Origin: an uncultured Peptococcaceae bacterium
Lineage (GTDB): Bacteria; Bacillota; Desulfitobacteriia; Desulfitobacteriales; Syntrophobotulaceae
Length of the DNA stretch: 52,778 bases
Reading direction: 5' to 3'
Assembly (NCBI GenBank): GCA_937892995.1
Contig: CALBJS010000086.1
Coordinates: forward strand, 1 to 52,778
The position numbers were made by a program, and so were the translations under genes. Positions 20,777 to 29,669 of the stretch are shown piece by piece; the stretch's first letter is position 1, and the number at the start of each line of letters is the position of its first letter. The notes beneath the pieces were generated by a model that saw nothing but the letters and a program-made list of their open reading frames with translations, had not been told where the DNA came from and searched no databases.

Positions 20777-21337
20777 ATGAAAAGAATCTTGGGGATATTT
20801 TTAAAGGGGATCTTGGTACTGGCACCGGTAGTTCTTACATTTTATATAATATTTAAGCTGTATGAAATAACTGATGGACTGTTTAAAGGTATCCTGCAAA
20901 AAGCGGGTATTTATTTTCCCGGGCTAGGAGTCTTTGTTACCCTGGCAGTCATTTTTTTGGCAGGGCTAATCGCTTCGAATTGGGTTACTAATAAGCTTAT
21001 TTTTTATTTTGAAAGATTCTTAGCTAGGGTGCCCTTGCTTGGGAATATTTACGGGATCATTAAGGATACGTTGAATTCTTTTTCGGCCAATAAAAAGGGA
21101 TTTACTCGCTTAGTAAGAGTTAATATGCCTAATGATTTGAAACTTTTAGGTTTTTTGACCAATGATGAGGATAAAGTCTTCATTCCCCAGGGCTTTGTAG
21201 CGGTTTACCTTATGCAGTCTATGCAATGGGCGGGAAACCTTATCCTTGTACCGGTAGAGCTAGTAGAACCAATAGATGTTTCAGCGGAAGAGGCCCTTAA
21301 ATTTATTGCTTCTGCGGGGTTGTTAAAAGCTAAGTAA
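20777..21337 (+). CDS. DUF502 family membrane protein
   Basis: Two N-terminal TM helices and a conserved-looking C-terminal domain. ATG at 20777 follows gaaggtgaagga. The 3' end overlaps hydF convergently by 15 nt. Confidence 0.7.
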   Translation: MKRILGIFLKGILVLAPVVLTFYIIFKLYEITDGLFKGILQKAGIYFPGLGVFVTLAVIFLAGLIASNWVTNKLIFYFERFLARVPLLGNIYGIIKDTLNSFSANKKGFTRLVRVNMPNDLKLLGFLTNDEDKVFIPQGFVAVYLMQSMQWAGNLILVPVELVEPIDVSAEEALKFIASAGLLKAK

Positions 21338-22624
21338 AGTTTCATAATCTATCCCTAACGGGCGAAGGGCCCTAGGGAGAATACCATGAACGGCTGCGAT
21401 CAAAACACCATAGTTTACTATCGGGATGTTCATTTTTTTAGTTAAGCTGATTCTATGCAACATTTCTTTACGGTTAAGCATACAACCGCCGCAATGGACG
21501 ATTAGTTTATATTCATCCAGATTATCCGGGTAATCTGAGCCATGAGAGAAATCAATTTTTAACTCTCCTCCAACCATTTGACTTAGCCAGTGCGGAATCT
21601 TGATCTTGCCGAGATCATCAGATTGCTGATGATGAGTACAGGCTTCAGCTATCAGGATTTTATCACAGGGAACCAGGGTTTCTATAGCTTTAGCTCCCCT
21701 GGCTAAGGAGAGCAGGTCACCTTTATAGCGAGCCATCAAGATGGAGAAAGAGGTTAAAGGTATATCTGAGGGCAGATCTTTAGCAACTTCCCTAAAAGCT
21801 TGGGAGTCAGTCACTACAAGCTTCGGGGGTTCTTTTAGAGCAGCCAGGGCCTTCTTCAACTCAGATTCCTTGCAGACGACTGTTAGGCAATCATGGTCCA
21901 GGATATCCCTGATCGTCTGGACCTGAGGAAGAATAAGGCGTCCTTTAGGAGCAGCCTCATCTATTGGCACTACTAAGAGCATCATGTCCCCCGGGGAGAG
22001 AAGGTCTCCAACTATCGCCGAAGGTAATCTCTCGGTGGGCTTTACGTTACACAAATGTTGCTTAAGTGCAGGGATGCCTCCTTTGGTGGTAGAACTAACA
22101 AATAAAGCAGGAGTATTGTCAATATTTAAGATTGAAGGGCTGCCGGAATCTAGGCTATTGCTCGAAAGAGAATGGGCAATAGCAAGTAATTGTTTTTTTA
22201 AGGAGATTAATAGTTGTTTCCTTTGCTCTTCATCGATTAGATCTTTTTTAGTGAATACAATTACTACGGGGATATTCTTTTCAAAACTAAGAAGGAATAT
22301 CCTCTTTTCATAATCCCCAAACCCAGAGGTGGAATCTACTACTAAGAGAGTAACATCAGTTTTTTCTAGGACTTCTAAAGACTTCTTGGCCCTTAATTCC
22401 CCCAGAGCACCTTCATCATCCAGGCCTGCCGTATCGATGAGCATAACCGGACCCAGTGGTAAGATTTCCATCGCTTTGTAGACCGGATCAGTAGTCGTGC
22501 CGGCAACATCGGAGACCAGTGCGATCTCCTGATTAGTTAAAGCATTGATCAGGCTGGATTTACCGACATTTCTCCGACCGAAGAGGGAGATGTGTAAACG
22601 TGAGCCTTTGGGGGTGTCTTGCAT
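21323..22624 (-). CDS. hydF: [FeFe]-hydrogenase H-cluster maturation GTPase HydF
   Basis: GTPase P-loop GRRNVGKSSL, DTAG, and a C-terminal Cys motif region (CTHH...HCGGC). Adjacent to hydG/hydE. Confidence 0.9.
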   Translation of the reverse strand: MQDTPKGSRLHISLFGRRNVGKSSLINALTNQEIALVSDVAGTTTDPVYKAMEILPLGPVMLIDTAGLDDEGALGELRAKKSLEVLEKTDVTLLVVDSTSGFGDYEKRIFLLSFEKNIPVVIVFTKKDLIDEEQRKQLLISLKKQLLAIAHSLSSNSLDSGSPSILNIDNTPALFVSSTTKGGIPALKQHLCNVKPTERLPSAIVGDLLSPGDMMLLVVPIDEAAPKGRLILPQVQTIRDILDHDCLTVVCKESELKKALAALKEPPKLVVTDSQAFREVAKDLPSDIPLTSFSILMARYKGDLLSLARGAKAIETLVPCDKILIAEACTHHQQSDDLGKIKIPHWLSQMVGGELKIDFSHGSDYPDNLDEYKLIVHCGGCMLNRKEMLHRISLTKKMNIPIVNYGVLIAAVHGILPRALRPLGIDYETLLSF

Positions 22625-22781: not shown

Positions 22782-24242
22782 TTAAAGATAAAGATCTCGC
22801 TGGCCATTTTTAATTTTTTCTAAGTTATCAGTGGTAAGAGCTTTTATCTTCTCGTTCTGGATTTCTCCAATAAAGCTATGGATAGTTTTTTCTCCTATTT
22901 CCTTAGTTTCCGGAGAAGCGTAATCTTGTAGATATTCCTGGAAGGTCATCAGGGCATTGGGAAGGCAGACATTACAGATGTTGCCTGTTTTGGCAAGCTG
23001 CATAAACCTATCGCCTGTCCTTCCTTGGCGATAACAAGCTGTACAATAACTAGGCAGATAACCTTGAGAACAGAGATTGGCTAGGATTTGGTCAGGACTG
23101 CGCTGATCTTCAACTTGGAATTGGGCAGTATCATCTGGGATTGGTTCTGTAAAAGCACTTTCTTCTTCAAATTCTTTTTTGTAGGCACCTACTCCTGTGC
23201 AGGAACCGGCACTTATTTGGGATACTCCCAGCTTGATGACCTCATCTCTAAAATCCGATCCTTCTCTAGTAGAGAGGATTATCCCAGTGTAAGGTACGGC
23301 AAGTCTAAAGACAGCGACAATATCTTTAAATTCCTCATCAGTTACAAGGTAGGGGAAATCCTTCAGATTCATTCCGGCAGCAGGCTTCAGACGAGGGACA
23401 GAGATGGTATGTGGTCCAACACCAAATTTTTCTTCGAGGTGAAGTGCATGGTAGAGCATGGCCAAGACCTCAAACTTATAGTCATAGAGGCCGAAAAGCA
23501 CACCGGCACCTACATCATCTATCCCTCCTTGCATTGCCCGGTCCATAGCTGTTGTGTGATAGGAATAAGAAGATTTGGGACCGCTGGGGTGCATTTTTTC
23601 GTAAGTTTCCTGATGGTAGGTTTCTTGGAAGAGGATATAGGTACCGATTCCTGCTTCTTTTAATTTACGGTAATTTTCAACTGTAGTTGCCGCAATATTA
23701 ACATTTACTCTCCGGATCGAACCTTGTTCTTCACTTGTATTGTAGATTACCTTAATAGCATCTAAGACATATTCGATGGGGCAGTTCTTAGGATCTTCGC
23801 CTACTTCTAGGGCCAGACGTTTATGTCCCATTCTTTCCAACACTTTGACTTCTTCAGCGATTTCCGCCATGGTAAGTTTGCGACGAGTTATTTTATTGGC
23901 ATGTCCATAACCACAGTATTTACAATTATTAATACAATAGTTACTTAAGTATAAAGGTGCAAAAAGAACGATTCTCTTGCCATAAATGGTTTCTTTGACT
24001 TCGCCTGCGGCAGCATAAATCTCACTTTTTAGCTTAGGATCTGTGGTCTGGAGTAGGATTGCAGCTTCTAGGGGACTAAGGCCTTTAGCCCTTTTTGCTT
24101 TGGCTATTATTCTCCTTGTTTCTTCTTTGCCGGCTTTCTTTGCTTGTTTCAGGTCTTTCCAAATTTTTTCTTGGTTAATAAAGTCCACTTTAGAATGTAA
24201 TTCCGTTTCTTCCTTTAATTGGGGCGATATAGCAACTGTCAT
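22782..24242 (-). CDS. hydG: [FeFe]-hydrogenase maturase HydG (radical SAM tyrosine lyase)
   Basis: 486 aa. CINNCKYCGY radical SAM motif and C-terminal auxiliary cluster motif CTACYRQGRTGDRFM. Confidence 0.92.
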   Translation of the reverse strand: MTVAISPQLKEETELHSKVDFINQEKIWKDLKQAKKAGKEETRRIIAKAKRAKGLSPLEAAILLQTTDPKLKSEIYAAAGEVKETIYGKRIVLFAPLYLSNYCINNCKYCGYGHANKITRRKLTMAEIAEEVKVLERMGHKRLALEVGEDPKNCPIEYVLDAIKVIYNTSEEQGSIRRVNVNIAATTVENYRKLKEAGIGTYILFQETYHQETYEKMHPSGPKSSYSYHTTAMDRAMQGGIDDVGAGVLFGLYDYKFEVLAMLYHALHLEEKFGVGPHTISVPRLKPAAGMNLKDFPYLVTDEEFKDIVAVFRLAVPYTGIILSTREGSDFRDEVIKLGVSQISAGSCTGVGAYKKEFEEESAFTEPIPDDTAQFQVEDQRSPDQILANLCSQGYLPSYCTACYRQGRTGDRFMQLAKTGNICNVCLPNALMTFQEYLQDYASPETKEIGEKTIHSFIGEIQNEKIKALTTDNLEKIKNGQRDLYL

Positions 24243-24303: not shown

Positions 24304-25371
24304 TTATACTAGCGTAGATACCTCGAAAGCTTCACTGAGGCTAATATGATCACCTCTTCCCATATCGGCGATATTGCCTGTTCTTTTGATACGCTCTTGG
24401 ACCGCCTGCAAGTGAATTCTTGCTTCATCAGGAATAGAGGTCTTACCATTATAAAGAGTGTATTTTTTACGTATTTCCGGGGGCGAAAGATTAAGCATTA
24501 GGACGTTAGCACCTGCTTGAAGCCCTTTTTCCCAACCGCGGGAATGGACTGAGCCAAGAGCGGTAGTCGCCGGTAAAAGTACTTCAGGAAGGAGTAACCT
24601 TGTGAGGGAAAGCATGATACAAGTAAGTTCAGGATCTCCGCTTGAAGCTAAGGATAGGGGTGTATCTTGATGAGGAATGAAAGGACCTATCCCGACCATA
24701 TGGGGTTCAAGCTCTTTGAGAAATAACAGATCAGCAACATAATCTTCAGTGGTTTGGGATGGTAGTCCTACCATAAATCCCGCTCCGGTCTGAAAACCGA
24801 TTTTTTTAAGATCCCAGAGACATTTCTCCCTTGCCTTAGAAGACATTCCGGGATGAAGTTTAGAATAAAGCTTCTCCGATCTGGTTTCGTGCCGCAGAAG
24901 ATATCTGCTGGCTCCTGCTTCAAATAATTTTTGATAGGATGATGCTGATCTTTCCCCGAGGGATAGGGTAACAGCACAGTCAGGATACCTTGCTTTGATT
25001 TTGGAGATCAGAGCAGTAAGCCGCTTATCTGTAAAAAACGGATCTTCTCCTCCTTGCAAGACGAAAGTACGATAACCCAAGTTATAGCCCTGAGTTGTAA
25101 TATCAAGTATCTCCCCTGCGGAAAGCCGATATCTTTCGCAACGTTTGTTACTACTTCTGAGGCCACAATACGCACAGTCGTTTCGGCAGTAATTAGTAAA
25201 CTCAATAAGACCACGGAGGAAGATTTTGCGGCTATAGACTTTGGCAGTAGTTTTACGGGCCTGGTCGTGGAGATAGTGTTTATTCTCTTCATCTAGGTTT
25301 AAGAGTAATTCGATCAGTTCTTTTCTTCCTAAATTATTATTCTTAGTTAGCTTATCGATAAGTGCTTTCAT
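24304..25371 (-). CDS. hydE: [FeFe]-hydrogenase maturase HydE (radical SAM)
   Basis: 355 aa. CRNDCAYCGLR motif, BioB-like fold pattern, operon context with hydG/hydF. Confidence 0.9.
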   Translation of the reverse strand: MKALIDKLTKNNNLGRKELIELLLNLDEENKHYLHDQARKTTAKVYSRKIFLRGLIEFTNYCRNDCAYCGLRSSNKRCERYRLSAGEILDITTQGYNLGYRTFVLQGGEDPFFTDKRLTALISKIKARYPDCAVTLSLGERSASSYQKLFEAGASRYLLRHETRSEKLYSKLHPGMSSKAREKCLWDLKKIGFQTGAGFMVGLPSQTTEDYVADLLFLKELEPHMVGIGPFIPHQDTPLSLASSGDPELTCIMLSLTRLLLPEVLLPATTALGSVHSRGWEKGLQAGANVLMLNLSPPEIRKKYTLYNGKTSIPDEARIHLQAVQERIKRTGNIADMGRGDHISLSEAFEVSTLV

Positions 25372-25461
25372 CTAAATCCTCCTTTCAAAGCAAAGCAATA
25401 AAACAAAAATTATTGAATATCAAATGCCCTCTTGGTAATAGTATTTATTAAAATTCACATT

Positions 25462-25488
25462 AAAAAAACTTTCCCAGAAAGGAAAGTT
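25462..25488 (-). terminator. Intrinsic terminator in the leader upstream of hydE
   Basis: Minus strand reads aactttcc-tttctg-ggaaagtt followed by ttttttt. It lies about 90 nt upstream of the hydE start. Confidence 0.55.
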
Positions 25489-25698
25489 ATACGATTCCAA
25501 GGTAAGCCAATTCCGGCTAATTCTTGAGAAGTATCGTGCTTTTCTTTCAGATCAGAGATTTTCTTTTCTGTTAGGAAAACATTAAATTATTCGATTATTA
25601 ATTATTTGGTTATTTGATTTTGATTATGTTTATGATTGCGTAAGGATTATGTTATCGGTTTAGAAAAGCATAATCAGAAACAGGAATTGCGAGGAGTA

Positions 25699-25950
25699 TT
25701 AAAAGTCTTTCTTGGACATTGCTGTTTTGACAGATATTTTATCAATCTTACCAAGTTTACCTGTCAAGCTATTTATTTCATCTGTGTCTCCTAGGACAGC
25801 TATCGATACTAGAGATATACTTTGTTCCGGAATAGGGATTCCCATACGACCTTTGATTATGCCTTTGAAAGAGGCTATGGTATCATTAAACTCCTGTTGG
25901 GTAGTTTTGGGATCCTCTAGGATGGCACTAATCACGGCTACTTTTCTCAT
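25699..25950 (-). CDS. TM1266-family iron-only hydrogenase system regulator (ACT-like)
   Basis: 83 aa with pattern VISAILEDP...GRMGIP...ISLVSIAVLGDTDEINSLTGKLGKI, which matches my recollection of the TM1266 family. Sits at the head of the hydEGF cluster. Confidence 0.75.
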   Translation of the reverse strand: MRKVAVISAILEDPKTTQQEFNDTIASFKGIIKGRMGIPIPEQSISLVSIAVLGDTDEINSLTGKLGKIDKISVKTAMSKKDF

Positions 25951-25971
25951 TGGCTGACCACTCTCCTAGTT

Positions 25972-26014
25972 TAAATAATAAAAATAGACTTTCTTCGCTT
26001 GAAAGAAAGTCTAT
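25972..26014 (-). terminator. Intrinsic terminator in the leader immediately upstream of the TM1266-family gene
   Basis: Minus strand reads atagactttctt-tcaagcg-aagaaagtctat (12-bp stem) followed by ttttattattt. It ends about 20 nt before the RBS. Confidence 0.6.
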
Positions 26015-26323
26015 GAAAATCAGAGATACTAGGCATTGCAGACTTCCCTTCCAGATCAGTAACTTTACTTTTCAGTCAGGATACAACTGTTTAGAATATA
26101 AGAAATATTCTTATTATCTAAAATACTACCAGAGATCCGAGTTGATTACAAGAAGAGATTTTTCTAAGTTTCTAATGATACCAAGGAAAAGTTAAATCTC
26201 GATAAAGAAGGAGATAATATAAAATATGACGAACATTAAATCAATACGTTAATATCAATAAGTCCCTATTATTACGTTCATAATACTATTCCTACCCAAG
26301 ATAGAAAAGAGATGGTGATAATA

Positions 26324-26851
26324 ATGAATCAGGCTGTCCAATTTGTTTTACTTATTATAGCAATTAATGTTACTTATGTATCTTTGACCACCATTAGATT
26401 TATCCTGATGATTAAAGGGTTAAGGGAATTTGCTTCTGTTTTGTCCGTGGTAGAAGTTTTTGTCTATATTATGGGACTCTCCATAATTCTTTCGAATCTT
26501 AATAGCTATTGGAATATTGCTGCTTACTGTATAGGTTATGGAATGGGTGTCTATCTGGGAAGTATAATAGAGGAGAGACTAGCTTTAGGGTATATTACGG
26601 CGGAAGTGATAGTTGATTCCATAAACAACTCTTTGCCGGAGATCTTGCGTAAGAGTGGTTTCGGAGTAACTAGTTGGATAGGAGAAGGCCGAGACGGGCA
26701 CCGTTTAGTTATGTTAGTGCTTGCTAAGCGTAAGTACCAGAAGGAACTTTTGAAGATAATCGATAATTCTTGCCCTAATTCTTTTGTTGTTTTTGAAGAA
26801 CCTAAGCATTTTCGAGGAGGTTTTTGGGCGAGTAGGTTGGGGCATAAGTAA
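26324..26851 (+). CDS. UPF0316 (DUF2179/YebE-like) membrane protein
   Basis: Good colinear similarity, from memory, to Bacillus UPF0316 proteins (three TM helices then ...LALGYITAEVIVD...GFGVT...). Start taken at MNQ (26324). Confidence 0.8.
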   Translation: MNQAVQFVLLIIAINVTYVSLTTIRFILMIKGLREFASVLSVVEVFVYIMGLSIILSNLNSYWNIAAYCIGYGMGVYLGSIIEERLALGYITAEVIVDSINNSLPEILRKSGFGVTSWIGEGRDGHRLVMLVLAKRKYQKELLKIIDNSCPNSFVVFEEPKHFRGGFWASRLGHK

Positions 26852-27355: not shown

Positions 27356-27427
27356 TATTGCTTATCGACTTTTGGCAGTGGAATCATATTTCTAATATGA
27401 ATAACAATGGAAACGGAGGTCGGGATT

Positions 27428-28690
27428 ATGAGTCTGGTTTATGTTGGGTTTGTTCCCCATCCGCCAATTGTAGTGCCGGAAATCGGGCGTGGGGAAGAGA
27501 AAGCCAGTGAGGCAACGATTGAGGCTTTTCGAAGACTAGCTAAAGAAGTAGTTAAGATGGAAGTAAAGACTATACTGATAGTATCACCGCATGCTCCGCT
27601 TGCCGATGGCGGTCTTGTCTATCTTGAAGGGAATCCTTTGTCGGGAAGTTTTGTAAGGTTTGGGGCGGGGGAAGTACAATTTAAAAAAGAAGTCAATAAG
27701 GAGATCCTTGAAGCGATTAAAGAGGATATTTCGGACTCTTTTCCGGTGAAGGCAGAGCTTGACCATGGTGTTCTGGTTCCCTTATATTTTTTAAGAGAAG
27801 CTGGTTGGGAAGGAAAGATAGTGGTCTTGAGTATGCCGACGAAAAAACCTGAAGATTACGGAAGAAAGGTCGGACAAATCTTAAGTGATTCCTCCGAGCG
27901 TTGTGCCTTGATCGCCAGTGGTGATCTTTCTCATAGGCTTAAGAAAGACGGACCCTATGGTTTTCATCCTGCGGGACCTAAGGTGGATAATATCATAGTC
28001 AAGGCTTTAAAGAAGGATACTACCTTAGTGAGAGGTATTCCCCATGATTTATTGGAAGAAGCCGCTCAATGCGGCTACAATTCGTTGTTGTTTGCCTTGG
28101 GGGCCAGAGAAGGCTCGGTAAAAGTTTTTTCCTATGAAGGCCCATTCGGGGTAGGATATCTAGTGGCAGAAATCTATCGTTCTTCACCGATTGCCGGTTT
28201 TGCCAGAGAATGCCTTACTTATTACCTTACTGCTCAACCTTTCGACAAACTAATAATTCCAGGGGAACCCCTTTTAAAAGAAAAGAAGAGTTGTTTTGTA
28301 ACCTTAAAAAAAGATGGAAACTTGAGAGGCTGTATCGGTACAGTCCAACCGGTAAGAGAAAACCTCGCTTTAGAGATAAAACATAATGCTATCTCAGCCG
28401 GAACTCAAGATCCACGTTTTTGGCCGCTTCAGGCAGATGAATTATCCCTCATCTCTATTACGGTTGACGTTTTGGGGGATATGGAGAAGATTTCCGGAAC
28501 TGAGGAATTAGATCCTAAGCGTTATGGAGTGGTAGTAAGGCACGGTGGCAAGGTAGGATTGTTGTTACCTCACCTGGATGGGGTAGATACAGTTGAAGAA
28601 CAGCTGCAAATTGCTAAGCAAAAGGCCGGCATCTTCCCTGAAGAAGAAGTGGAGTTATGGAAATTTGAGGTTGACAGATATTTCGAATAA
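27428..28690 (+). CDS. AmmeMemoRadiSam system fusion protein: LigB/Memo-like N-domain + AMMECR1 C-domain
   Basis: N-terminal class III extradiol dioxygenase-like motifs (VPHPPIVVPEIG, SPHAP, ELDHGVLVPL, SGDLSHRL). C-terminal AMMECR1 motif CFVTLKKDGNLRGCIGT. ATG at 27428 follows ggagg. Confidence 0.8.
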   Translation: MSLVYVGFVPHPPIVVPEIGRGEEKASEATIEAFRRLAKEVVKMEVKTILIVSPHAPLADGGLVYLEGNPLSGSFVRFGAGEVQFKKEVNKEILEAIKEDISDSFPVKAELDHGVLVPLYFLREAGWEGKIVVLSMPTKKPEDYGRKVGQILSDSSERCALIASGDLSHRLKKDGPYGFHPAGPKVDNIIVKALKKDTTLVRGIPHDLLEEAAQCGYNSLLFALGAREGSVKVFSYEGPFGVGYLVAEIYRSSPIAGFARECLTYYLTAQPFDKLIIPGEPLLKEKKSCFVTLKKDGNLRGCIGTVQPVRENLALEIKHNAISAGTQDPRFWPLQADELSLISITVDVLGDMEKISGTEELDPKRYGVVVRHGGKVGLLLPHLDGVDTVEEQLQIAKQKAGIFPEEEVELWKFEVDRYFE

Positions 28691-28721
28691 AGGTTTTTAA
28701 CTACTTATGTGGAGGATTTTT

Positions 28722-29669
28722 ATGACCGAAGTAGTACAATGTTCCCTTTGTCCACATCATTGTAAACTTCGAGAGGGTCAAACCGGATTATGTAAGGCTA
28801 GGAGCCATAAGAATGGGGAGATAGTAGCTCTTACTTATGGCGAAGTAGCAGCTTGGCATCTTGATCCGATCGAGAAAAAACCTCTATATCATTTTTATCC
28901 AGGGAGTTGGATCTTTTCGGCAGGGGGTTATGGCTGTAATCTCAAATGTTTTTTTTGCCAAAATTATGAAATCTCCCAAAAAACCGAAAGAGGTCAGCAG
29001 GTATCTCCTGAAGAGCTTGCCCGATTATCGACGGAGAATCAATCTATTGGGATTTGTTTTACTTATTCAGAACCTTTAATGTGGTACGAGATGATAGCTC
29101 AGACCGCTCCTCGGGTGAAGAACCAAGGAGGAAAGGTAGCCCTGGTCAGTAACGGGATTATAGAGGGTGAACACCTGGAAAAGATTATTCCCTATCTTGA
29201 TGCTGTAAACATCGATATTAAGGGTTTTACAGAAGAATTCTATCAGAAATATACGGGTGGAAAGCTGGAGTGGGTTCTTAATACGGTAGAAAGATTAGCT
29301 GGAAGGGTTCATACGGAGGTTACGACATTGGTTATTCCCGGTTTGAATGACAGCCCTGAGGAAATAAGAGCTCTGGCCAAATGGCTTGCCAGACTCGGGG
29401 TTCCTGTGGCCTGGCATTTGAGCAGGTACTATCCAATGTATAAATGTAACATCCCGGCAACTGAAGAAGGGAAACTTCGGGAACTTAAGAAGCTGGCTAA
29501 GGAATATCTTCCATATGTTTACCTTGGTAATATGCCGGGGGAGAACACAACATATTGTCCGAAGTGTGACAGGGAAGTGATTCTTAGGGGGTGGTCTGTA
29601 AAGATGAAGACTGAGGGTGGTAAGTGTCTGTACTGTGGACAGAAGATCTGGGGAATAGGGTTGCCCTAA
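28722..29669 (+). CDS. AmmeMemoRadiSam system radical SAM enzyme
   Basis: N-terminal CSLCPHHC...C motif, radical SAM CNLKCFFCQN, C-terminal CPKC...CLYCG. Immediately follows the AMMECR1 fusion gene. Confidence 0.85.
   Translation: MTEVVQCSLCPHHCKLREGQTGLCKARSHKNGEIVALTYGEVAAWHLDPIEKKPLYHFYPGSWIFSAGGYGCNLKCFFCQNYEISQKTERGQQVSPEELARLSTENQSIGICFTYSEPLMWYEMIAQTAPRVKNQGGKVALVSNGIIEGEHLEKIIPYLDAVNIDIKGFTEEFYQKYTGGKLEWVLNTVERLAGRVHTEVTTLVIPGLNDSPEEIRALAKWLARLGVPVAWHLSRYYPMYKCNIPATEEGKLRELKKLAKEYLPYVYLGNMPGENTTYCPKCDREVILRGWSVKMKTEGGKCLYCGQKIWGIGLP

Follow-up and report, generated by a model that had tools for sequence, protein, structure and literature searches.

The window analysed here, the whole 52,778-nucleotide (nt) stretch of contig CALBJS010000086.1 from an uncultured Peptococcaceae bacterium, carries on its minus strand an operon for the maturation of [FeFe]-hydrogenase, into which two leader RNAs of the terminator/antiterminator type are built. 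In the direction of transcription, the order is leader 1, a TM1266-family gene, leader 2, hydE, hydG, and hydF, with all four genes scoring far above the curated NCBIfam cut-offs. The TM1266-family gene (25699..25950) encodes a protein of 83 residues (TIGR03959, 91.8 bits with a cut-off of 60.8; PF21699, 82.8 bits with a cut-off of 27). The gene governed by leader 2 is hydE (24304..25371; TIGR03956, 483.8 bits), which encodes a radical S-adenosylmethionine (SAM) maturase; hydG (22782..24242; TIGR03955, 661.1 bits) lies 3′ of it in the same operon, and hydF (21323..22624; TIGR03918, 561 bits) is the final gene. To our knowledge, next to nothing has been established about how cells regulate the maturation of [FeFe]-hydrogenase by these three maturases (HydE, HydG, and HydF), and we know of no mechanism that has been assigned to the TM1266 family (PF21699), whose structure was released in 2006 and which has been labelled an "uncharacterised putative regulator" ever since.

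Both leaders contain an intrinsic terminator, that is, a G+C-containing stem-loop followed directly by a U tract. Terminator 1 (25974..26014, minus strand) consists of a stem of 13 pairs (26014..25984) and the tract TTTTATTATT, and terminator 2 (25460..25488, minus strand) of a stem of 9 pairs (25488..25467) and the tract TTTTTAATGT. A purine tract upstream of each can pair with the 5′ arm of the terminator instead. In the leader-1 antiterminator (26001..26051, minus strand), GAAGGGAAGUCU (26051..26040) pairs with AGACUUUCUUUC (26012..26001), a duplex lengthened by ViennaRNA to 13 base pairs (26051..26039 with 26013..26001); in that of leader 2 (25477..25548, minus strand), GAAAGAAAAG (25548..25539) pairs with CUUUCCUUUC (25486..25477) at 9 of 10 positions. 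These terminators and pairings had been reported in a preliminary description of this DNA, and a sequence check, a terminator scan, and folding confirmed them. The same description had pointed to a motif shared by the two purine tracts. The motif is real—the 2.68-Mb draft genome holds exactly two copies of its 17-nt form, CTGATCTGRAAGRRAAG, and both lie in these leaders—but it makes up only half of the element: each tract supplies the 3′ side of a hairpin that begins further upstream and is conserved as a whole.

A conserved hairpin with two-fold symmetry

The similarity between the two leaders runs about 22 nt further upstream of the purine tracts (CCUGAC.GAAAAG...), and alignment of the two leaders with each other, and then with the leaders of relatives, revealed in each a conserved hairpin of about 40 nt, with the purine tract as its 3′ strand. 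The consensus is 5′-(C)CU-RA-[N4]-RA-RG-loop-CU-RA-[N4′]-RA-AGG-3′, in which three short helices (3, 4, and 2–3 base pairs) are split by two symmetric 2×2 purine-purine loops (tandem R·A/A·R). Column counts over 52 instances showed that both strands share the consensus C-U-R-A-N4-R-A-R-G, so that the RNA forms a two-fold symmetric duplex; in the same alignment, columns 8, 48, and 54 contain nothing but A (52/52 each), and column 15 has A in 51 of 52 instances. Motif copy 1, the predicted anti-antiterminator of leader 1, occupies 26042..26083 on the minus strand (core CCUGA-CUGA-AAAG-loop-CUGA-UCUG-GAAGG, 26080..26047) and has a single U-U mismatch in its central helix. Motif copy 2, the corresponding element of leader 2, occupies 25538..25578 (core CCUAA-CAGA-AAAG-loop-CUGA-UCUG-AAAGA, 25575..25543). 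A putative sigma-70-type promoter, TTTAGA-16-TATATT (26095..26122, minus strand), predicted as a weak match with 9 of 12 consensus positions, would possibly put the transcript start a few nucleotides ahead of hairpin 1.

The structure is supported by covariation. In a hand alignment of 24 instances, drawn from 22 loci of relatives and the window, 92.1% of the cells are in standard pairs, compared with 30.4–45.6% when the 3′ partners were slid by 1–3 columns, and 8 of 10 pairs are altered on both sides. The covariation score of these 24 sequences was 0.609, against 0.219 ± 0.027 for shuffled versions, none of which (0/500) reached it. In the model alignment of 52 instances, which was fitted to the model and so leans toward the structure, 95.2% of the cells are paired and 8 of 9 pairs are altered on both sides; across both alignments, the slid controls gave 28–49%. 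The central helix, CAGA/UCUG here, is elsewhere CCGC/GCGG, CGCU/GGCG, CGCC/GGCG, UUGC/GCAA, CACC/GGUG, CGAA/UUCG, and others, and G-U pairs are tolerated (UG and GU cells in the 52-instance alignment). Thus, the preliminary description, which had made its proposal depend on covariation in homologous leaders, is upheld on this point, and a conserved, structured, aptamer-like element with covariation lies upstream of an expression platform. A kink-turn, the type of site bound by L7Ae, has tandem sheared G·A pairs beside a 3-nt bulge; this assignment was rejected, since both loops here are symmetric 2×2 loops and there is no bulge.

The hairpin competes with the antiterminator. In the window, it lies 27–32 nt upstream of the terminator and overlaps the antiterminator only; the leader-1 antiterminator, in turn, shares bases both with hairpin 1, on its 3′ strand, and with terminator 1, on its 5′ arm. 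For the nascent leader-1 RNA, the antiterminator is the minimum-energy fold (−20.6 kcal/mol, with −15.5 when the hairpin is enforced). For the nascent leader-2 RNA, the hairpin is kept in the minimum-energy fold (−22.9 kcal/mol, with −21.3 when the antiterminator is enforced, a gap of 1.6). Once the 3′ arms are transcribed, the hairpin together with the terminator is the minimum-energy fold in leader 1 (−26.9 kcal/mol) and in leader 2 (−33.0 kcal/mol). The full-length folds therefore favor hairpin and terminator, such that any stabilization of the hairpin is predicted to drive both leaders toward termination.

No known family accounts for the element. The covariance models of Rfam 15 gave no match at the gathering score anywhere in the window; at E ≤ 10, five matches were obtained in 25200..26500, at 13.5–18.8 bits and far under their thresholds, and in the loci of 20 relatives the only match was a tRNA. 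The earlier statement that no known riboswitch class is recognizable here, for which just such a search had been proposed, therefore stands. Within the library searched, full-text queries yielded no paper that connects an RNA motif, a riboswitch, or attenuation with TM1266, hydE, or hydG. The word "hydrogenase" is absent from the main texts of the motif-discovery papers PMC8632094, PMC11109978, PMC6429828, PMC5737381, and PMC2864571, the supplementary lists of which could hold an unnamed candidate. We regard it as nearly certain that the element represents an undescribed family of cis-regulatory RNA, one that is genuine, structured, and conserved.

Distribution, conserved wiring, and co-occurrence with TM1266

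Two covariance models were used, R1 built from 24 sequences and R2 from 52, and the false-positive range of such models was about 21–31 bits. In the window's own genome, R1 found leaders 2 and 1 at 42.9 and 41.7 bits, respectively, and the next match, on another contig (C290), scored 21.5 bits and lay within an open reading frame (ORF). Four genes like that of the [FeFe]-hydrogenase large subunit (hydA-like; PF02906, 109–325 bits) are present elsewhere in this genome, on contigs C185, C17, C228, and C111, and none of them coincides with a motif match in the covariance-model search, indicating that the element is specific to the maturation genes.

When R2 was applied to 80 named TM1266 loci from Clostridia, Ruminococcaceae, Lachnospiraceae, Treponema, Atribacterota, Thermotogota, Synergistaceae, Lentisphaerota, and others, 41 matches were obtained at E ≤ 1, of which 28, in 27 loci, were at E ≤ 0.01. 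All 41 lie on the strand of the gene. They are found 70–180 nt upstream of TM1266, just after TM1266, or between hydE and hydG, and the gene that follows is TM1266, hydE, hydG, or hydF; the motif thus marks a regulon. Of the 74 ORFs found 3′ of TM1266, 43 were scanned, and these comprise 14 HydE, 15 HydG, 6 HydF, and 8 other or unassigned. Of five named genomes searched in full, four have their sole detected copy adjoining TM1266, and in the fifth the known copy was missed.

These distributions bear on whether the element acts as RNA at all. The leader-1 site is near the putative promoter, as would suit an operator for a DNA-binding repressor, with the RNA folds being incidental. Such an operator is, in our estimate, very improbable, and it was rejected on the strand bias of 41/41 matches, the tolerance of G-U pairs, and the non-palindromic site, the conserved flanks being direct repeats (CTGA and AAAG on the same strand in both halves). 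Copies also occur between genes within operons, each with its own terminator.

The wiring from hairpin to terminator is conserved along with the hairpin. A terminator-like hairpin (ΔG ≤ −7 kcal/mol, followed by a U run) lies within 200 nt of the motif in 48 of 52 instances. The segment after the conserved GAAAG differs by lineage (GGAAAG, GGCGCGC, GGCAC, GGUGCAG, ACGCGG, and so on), and the 5′ arm of the terminator in the same leader co-varies with it. The cognate antiterminator duplexes have a mean of −10.5 kcal/mol, as compared with −7.3 ± 0.4 for permuted combinations (cognate value reached in 0/5000 permutations), a gap that base composition common to a lineage may inflate. Of 48 duplexes, 25 surpass those formed with a shuffled purine segment by 2 standard deviations or more. 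Alternative folds and cognate duplexes stronger than permuted ones are what is expected of a terminator/antiterminator attenuator; together with the conservation, they support the original proposal of two leaders of the riboswitch or protein-attenuator type.

The genomic association between the motif and the TM1266 gene was examined in 112 genomes of the window's class, with the motif counted at E ≤ 0.01. Forty-eight genomes were motif-positive and 71 had TM1266, with 47 of the 48 motif-positive genomes having TM1266; the lone exception (G040) was a 27.8-bit match that was rejected as it lies inside an ORF. HydG was matched at E ≤ 1e-60 in 91 of the 112 genomes and exceeded its cut-off in 84. 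Sixteen genomes without TM1266 have HydG above the cut-off, and no motif was found within 2.5 kb on either side of their hydG genes (best score 11.6 bits with filters off); R2, applied to 14 of these 16 loci, found nothing at E ≤ 1, the other two (L198 and L199) having been searched with R1 only. In a second order, centered on a Clostridiaceae genome and comprising 150 genomes, the motif was found in 60 genomes and TM1266 in 119 of the 143 scored. TM1266 accompanies the motif in 58 of the 60, and the two exceptions (28.1 and 29.7 bits) are among the four weakest matches. By itself this co-occurrence is uninformative, with TM1266 so frequent and with the first five TM1266-less genomes checked also lacking HydE; the test is informative because 14 TM1266-less genomes with HydE (303–564 bits) were selected. 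In these, the roughly 400–860 nt upstream of hydE are without the motif (best score 15.2 bits, filters off). In TM1266-positive genomes of the same order, copies of 34–44.5 bits are carried by hydE or hydF genes far from TM1266. Altogether, there is no secure case of the motif without TM1266, and 30 hydG or hydE loci of TM1266-less genomes in the two orders are motif-free. The dependence of the motif on TM1266 is one-way, as an operator–protein pair predicts. An RNA-level role of the TM1266 protein, raised as a testable idea in the preliminary description, is thus supported, the motif being essentially confined to genomes that encode the protein.

The same data bear on a new riboswitch class, in which the hairpin would be the aptamer for a small molecule or ion tied to H-cluster synthesis, binding of the ligand would stabilize the hairpin and lead to termination, and TM1266 would merely be the usual first gene or the regulatory subunit of an enzyme. 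A conserved, covarying, aptamer-like element with an orthodox terminator/antiterminator expression platform accords with this, as do the tandem second copy in some leaders and a range of targets that includes an SsuC/TauC-like ABC permease in three genomes and an SsuA-like protein 3′ of TM1266 in another, a regulon of biosynthesis plus transporter being typical of riboswitches. ACT-type regulatory subunits such as IlvN are, moreover, fold neighbors of the TM1266 protein. A self-sufficient riboswitch, however, needs no protein gene, and the motif was not found in the 30 hydG or hydE loci of TM1266-less genomes. Its sole conserved unpaired bases are those of the two symmetric 2×2 purine loops, and its sequence has a two-fold symmetry, features more in keeping with a dimer than with a ligand pocket; neither a junction nor a pseudoknot is evident. 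Like the present element, the xanthine-responsive NMT1 motif and the folE (THF-II) motif each consist of one short hairpin whose internal loops are conserved, precede a narrow set of genes, and are followed by an expression platform; unlike it, they bind their ligands without a protein and independently of any co-occurring small protein gene, and no Rfam model, theirs included, fits here. On balance, a riboswitch is the less probable explanation, though one to be taken seriously.

The TM1266-family protein as a candidate attenuation protein

The protein encoded between the two leaders belongs to the TM1266 family both by profile, scoring above the cut-off, and by fold, that of Protein Data Bank entry 2NZC. 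It matches chain 2nzc_A at E = 2.6e-9, and the entry has four chains. The AlphaFold 2 model (predicted local distance difference test score [pLDDT], 96.7) gave Foldseek TM-scores of 0.92–0.95 to 2nzc_A and about 0.84 to NikR C-terminal domains; further neighbors were the ACT domains of IlvN and RelA and, at lower TM-scores, chains of ribosomal protein S6 (2bxj_A, 1g1x_A) and of other ribosomal-subunit proteins. It is a single domain with an ACT/NikR-C-like fold, in which a DNA-binding domain is absent. In the family alignment, N22, G34-R35-M36-G37, P39, D57, L62, G67, K75, and K80 are invariant and I32, I59, and G64-K65-L66 nearly so (at least 90%), with no His or Cys among the invariant columns. 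The protein shares the fold of the NikR C-terminal and ACT domains, and, like them, is predicted to oligomerize through its β-sheet. Unlike NikR, the TM1266 family has neither a ribbon-helix-helix domain nor conserved His/Cys metal ligands. A metal sensor of the NikR type was rejected on these grounds and on the size of the protein, a single domain of 83 residues.

A homodimer was modeled with a score of 0.49 (best of three controls, 0.00). This passes a mark that 20 of 30 proteins solved as one-chain pairs reach, as does 1 of 23 whose structures contain a single chain; the counts are only approximate here, a custom alignment having been used, and the pass may also reflect the model's memory of 2NZC. 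The runs agree in at least 93% of the contacts, with a partner pLDDT of at least 86. R35 and K65 lie outside the predicted dimer interface, and could be considered as candidate RNA contacts.

We propose, with a probability of roughly 55%, that the leaders are three-tier attenuators resembling those of PyrR, in which the anti-antiterminator hairpin is bound by a TM1266 dimer. The first tier would be the conserved dyad-symmetric hairpin of about 40 nt, in competition with the antiterminator; the second, the antiterminator, in which the hairpin's 3′ strand, together with adjacent bases, pairs with the terminator's 5′ arm; and the third, the intrinsic terminator. A TM1266 homodimer or higher oligomer, probably loaded with an effector, would bind and lock the hairpin, thereby blocking the antiterminator and allowing the terminator to form, so that a bound factor would mean termination. 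Transcription would be stopped before TM1266 at leader 1 and again before hydE-hydG-hydF at leader 2. With the protein unbound, the antiterminator would win or compete evenly, and the operon would be read through. The outcome would be negative autoregulation of TM1266 combined with control of the maturase genes. A homodimer would be the natural reader of such a hairpin because of the dyad symmetry of the RNA. The broader proposition, in which the TM1266 family would constitute a new class of effector-sensing RNA-binding attenuation protein with an ACT/NikR-C-like fold, the dimer would read a dyad hairpin with two tandem purine-purine loops, and the regulon would comprise TM1266 itself, hydE, hydG, hydF, and an SsuABC-like transporter, appears to us evenly balanced.

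The class of mechanism is already known, and its members are unrelated to the present system in both RNA and protein. In the pyr operon of Bacillus subtilis, the regulator PyrR is encoded by the first gene, attenuators are located in the 5′ leader and between cistrons, and the hairpin bound by PyrR serves as the anti-antiterminator, its stabilization allowing the terminator to form; PyrR has a phosphoribosyltransferase fold and recognizes a conserved terminal loop. The present system resembles it computationally in having a regulator in its own operon, repeated attenuators, and a predicted anti-antiterminator hairpin, and also in that the fold of the regulator would not by itself suggest RNA binding. 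It differs from it in that the protein is an 83-residue ACT/NikR-C-like domain and the RNA features are two internal tandem-purine loops with two-fold symmetry. No homology to the PyrR system was found for either the protein or the RNA, the consensus of which differs from that of the PyrR loop, and the locus does not belong to that system.

Binding of TRAP to the trp leader RNA of B. subtilis prevents formation of the antiterminator, so that the intrinsic terminator forms (PMC3064811). The proposed binding of TM1266 would likewise block the antiterminator and let the terminator form, whereas TRAP reads 11 single-stranded (G/U)AG repeats and is encoded elsewhere, in contrast to the base-paired, covarying hairpin found here.

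The antiterminators of the LicT/BglG family (PMC5393181) act on hairpins known as ribonucleic antiterminators (RATs). A RAT is short and broken by two internal loops, and it is recognized by a protein that binds as a symmetric dimer; it overlaps the terminator, so that binding leads to antitermination. The present hairpin, too, is short, has two internal loops, and competes with a terminator, and here too a dimer is the proposed reader. Unlike the RAT, it overlaps the antiterminator, so that binding should terminate transcription, and the CAT-PRD proteins are unrelated to TM1266. Membership in the BglG/LicT group was rejected, with the hairpin located 27–32 nt upstream of the terminators and the 83-residue TM1266 homologue being the sole regulator-like gene.

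What the data show is the hairpin with its covariation, the competing pairings, the terminators, and the co-occurrence with TM1266 across genomes; TM1266 as the binder, the direction of regulation, and an effector are inferred. This leaves room for another trans factor or none specific: a protein co-occurring with TM1266, pausing or termination dependent on NusA/NusG, or a site for RNase processing or RNA stability. The slightly greater stability of the leader-2 hairpin over its antiterminator (−22.9 vs. −21.3 kcal/mol) would make default termination possible. We consider such an explanation improbable: it leaves the invariant purines, the dyad symmetry, and the confinement to TM1266-encoding genomes unexplained, and, besides TM1266 and hydE/G/F, no gene consistently adjoins the motif.

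Several observations weigh against the PyrR-like attenuator with TM1266 as its reader. TM1266-like genes occur without the motif, as orphans without hydG in genus g13 and in Thermotogota and Atribacterota loci, where the gene directly follows another ORF. In one genome (G046, 82% complete), TM1266 was undetected although a motif of 26.4 bits occupies the hydE–hydG spacer; the contig begins 66 nt upstream of hydE, where relatives have TM1266, and the case is therefore ambiguous. The genomes are related, which makes the co-occurrence phylogenetically non-independent, and those without TM1266 may come from few clades. The genome-wide covariance searches are lossy: two genomes that had contributed training sequences (G025 and G038) went undetected, as did a known copy in G261. 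Finally, small ACT-like proteins are often regulatory subunits of enzymes, with IlvN among the fold neighbors here, and small hairpin riboswitches with internal loops exist.

The TM1266 family is widespread and structurally solved, and the element is now defined by its consensus and structure, by a covariance model, and by dozens of examples. If the protein does bind, an ACT-like fold would join the short list of RNA-binding attenuation proteins, the effector would reveal what cells sense while the H-cluster is being made, and a missing regulatory layer of [FeFe]-hydrogenase cofactor assembly would be supplied. If it does not, a new class of riboswitch, linked to the chemistry of the H-cluster, would have a strong candidate in this element. 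In both cases, the engineering of hydrogen-producing anaerobes would benefit.

Variant loci and neighboring genes

Some matches of the covariance models were rejected as motif copies: those in G162 and G242 lie inside a 330-residue ORF, that on contig C11 of G001 overlaps, by eye, the start of a candidate L31-like gene, and that in G307 has neither a terminator nor a hyd gene nearby. The match in G386 sits at a contig end and is ambiguous. Scored copies of the motif come mostly from Clostridia and related groups; look-alikes in Treponema, Lentisphaerota, Synergistaceae, and Desulfonauticus were recognized by eye. Apparently diverged leaders of this kind, not scored by the models, were seen in Ruminococcus (L085, L094, L100, and L113), in Treponema (L089 and L093), and at L109, L145, L115, and L096, with conserved patterns such as UUUUCGGGCUGCAAGG...CUGAGCAAUCGG and CCUGCGG...AAGGGG; the Ruminococcus type retains the inner half only.

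Variation is also found in how the hairpin is connected to the following gene. At L020 (~1290–1470), upstream of hydE, 6-nt tandem repeats (TAGTAT/TAGCAT-like) are inserted between the motif and the terminator, which is more than 200 nt away. The G046 copy (L180:1168–1222) is a terminator-less hairpin in the 55-nt hydE–hydG spacer, and its 3′ side enters the Shine-Dalgarno sequence of hydG (AAAGGAG); a similar intercistronic, terminator-less element was noticed by eye 3′ of TM1266 at L001. Judged from sequence, this variant points to translation, and not transcription, as the step under control. Another hairpin, which resembles the motif but is weaker, is located about 50 nt upstream of the main one at L001:1326–1355, L011:1245–1284, L005:1245–1274, and L004:1333–1363, all from one TM1266 subfamily; three of these tandem copies were model-scored at 13.8–22.4 bits, and that at L004 was identified by pattern alone.

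Three Clostridial loci (L211, L212, and L214, from G319, G323, and G388) have the motif (32–37 bits) with its own terminator ahead of an SsuC/TauC/NtrB-like ABC permease, the matches to which are under the equivalog cut-offs, and in a metagenome-assembled genome of Synergistaceae an SsuA-family binding protein is encoded 3′ of TM1266 (L096:2842–3768); the regulon may include a NitT/TauT-type transporter. In Desulfotomaculum copahuensis (L115:2743–4344), an aspartate ammonia-lyase homologue (657.8 bits, subfamily model) is located directly 3′ of TM1266. The TM1266-like genes of genus g13 (L022–L024, from G024, G019, and G012) are 57–59% identical to that of the window and belong to genomes without detected HydG or motif; at L022, the only one of these loci checked, the neighboring gene is HGD-D/DUF2229-like. 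They look like an orphan use of a TM1266-like protein.

In the window itself, an AmmeMemoRadiSam system is encoded on the plus strand (27407..29669), slightly more than 1 kb away from the hyd leader and on the opposite strand to it, and consists of an A/B fusion gene (27407..28690) and a gene for a radical SAM enzyme (28707..29669).

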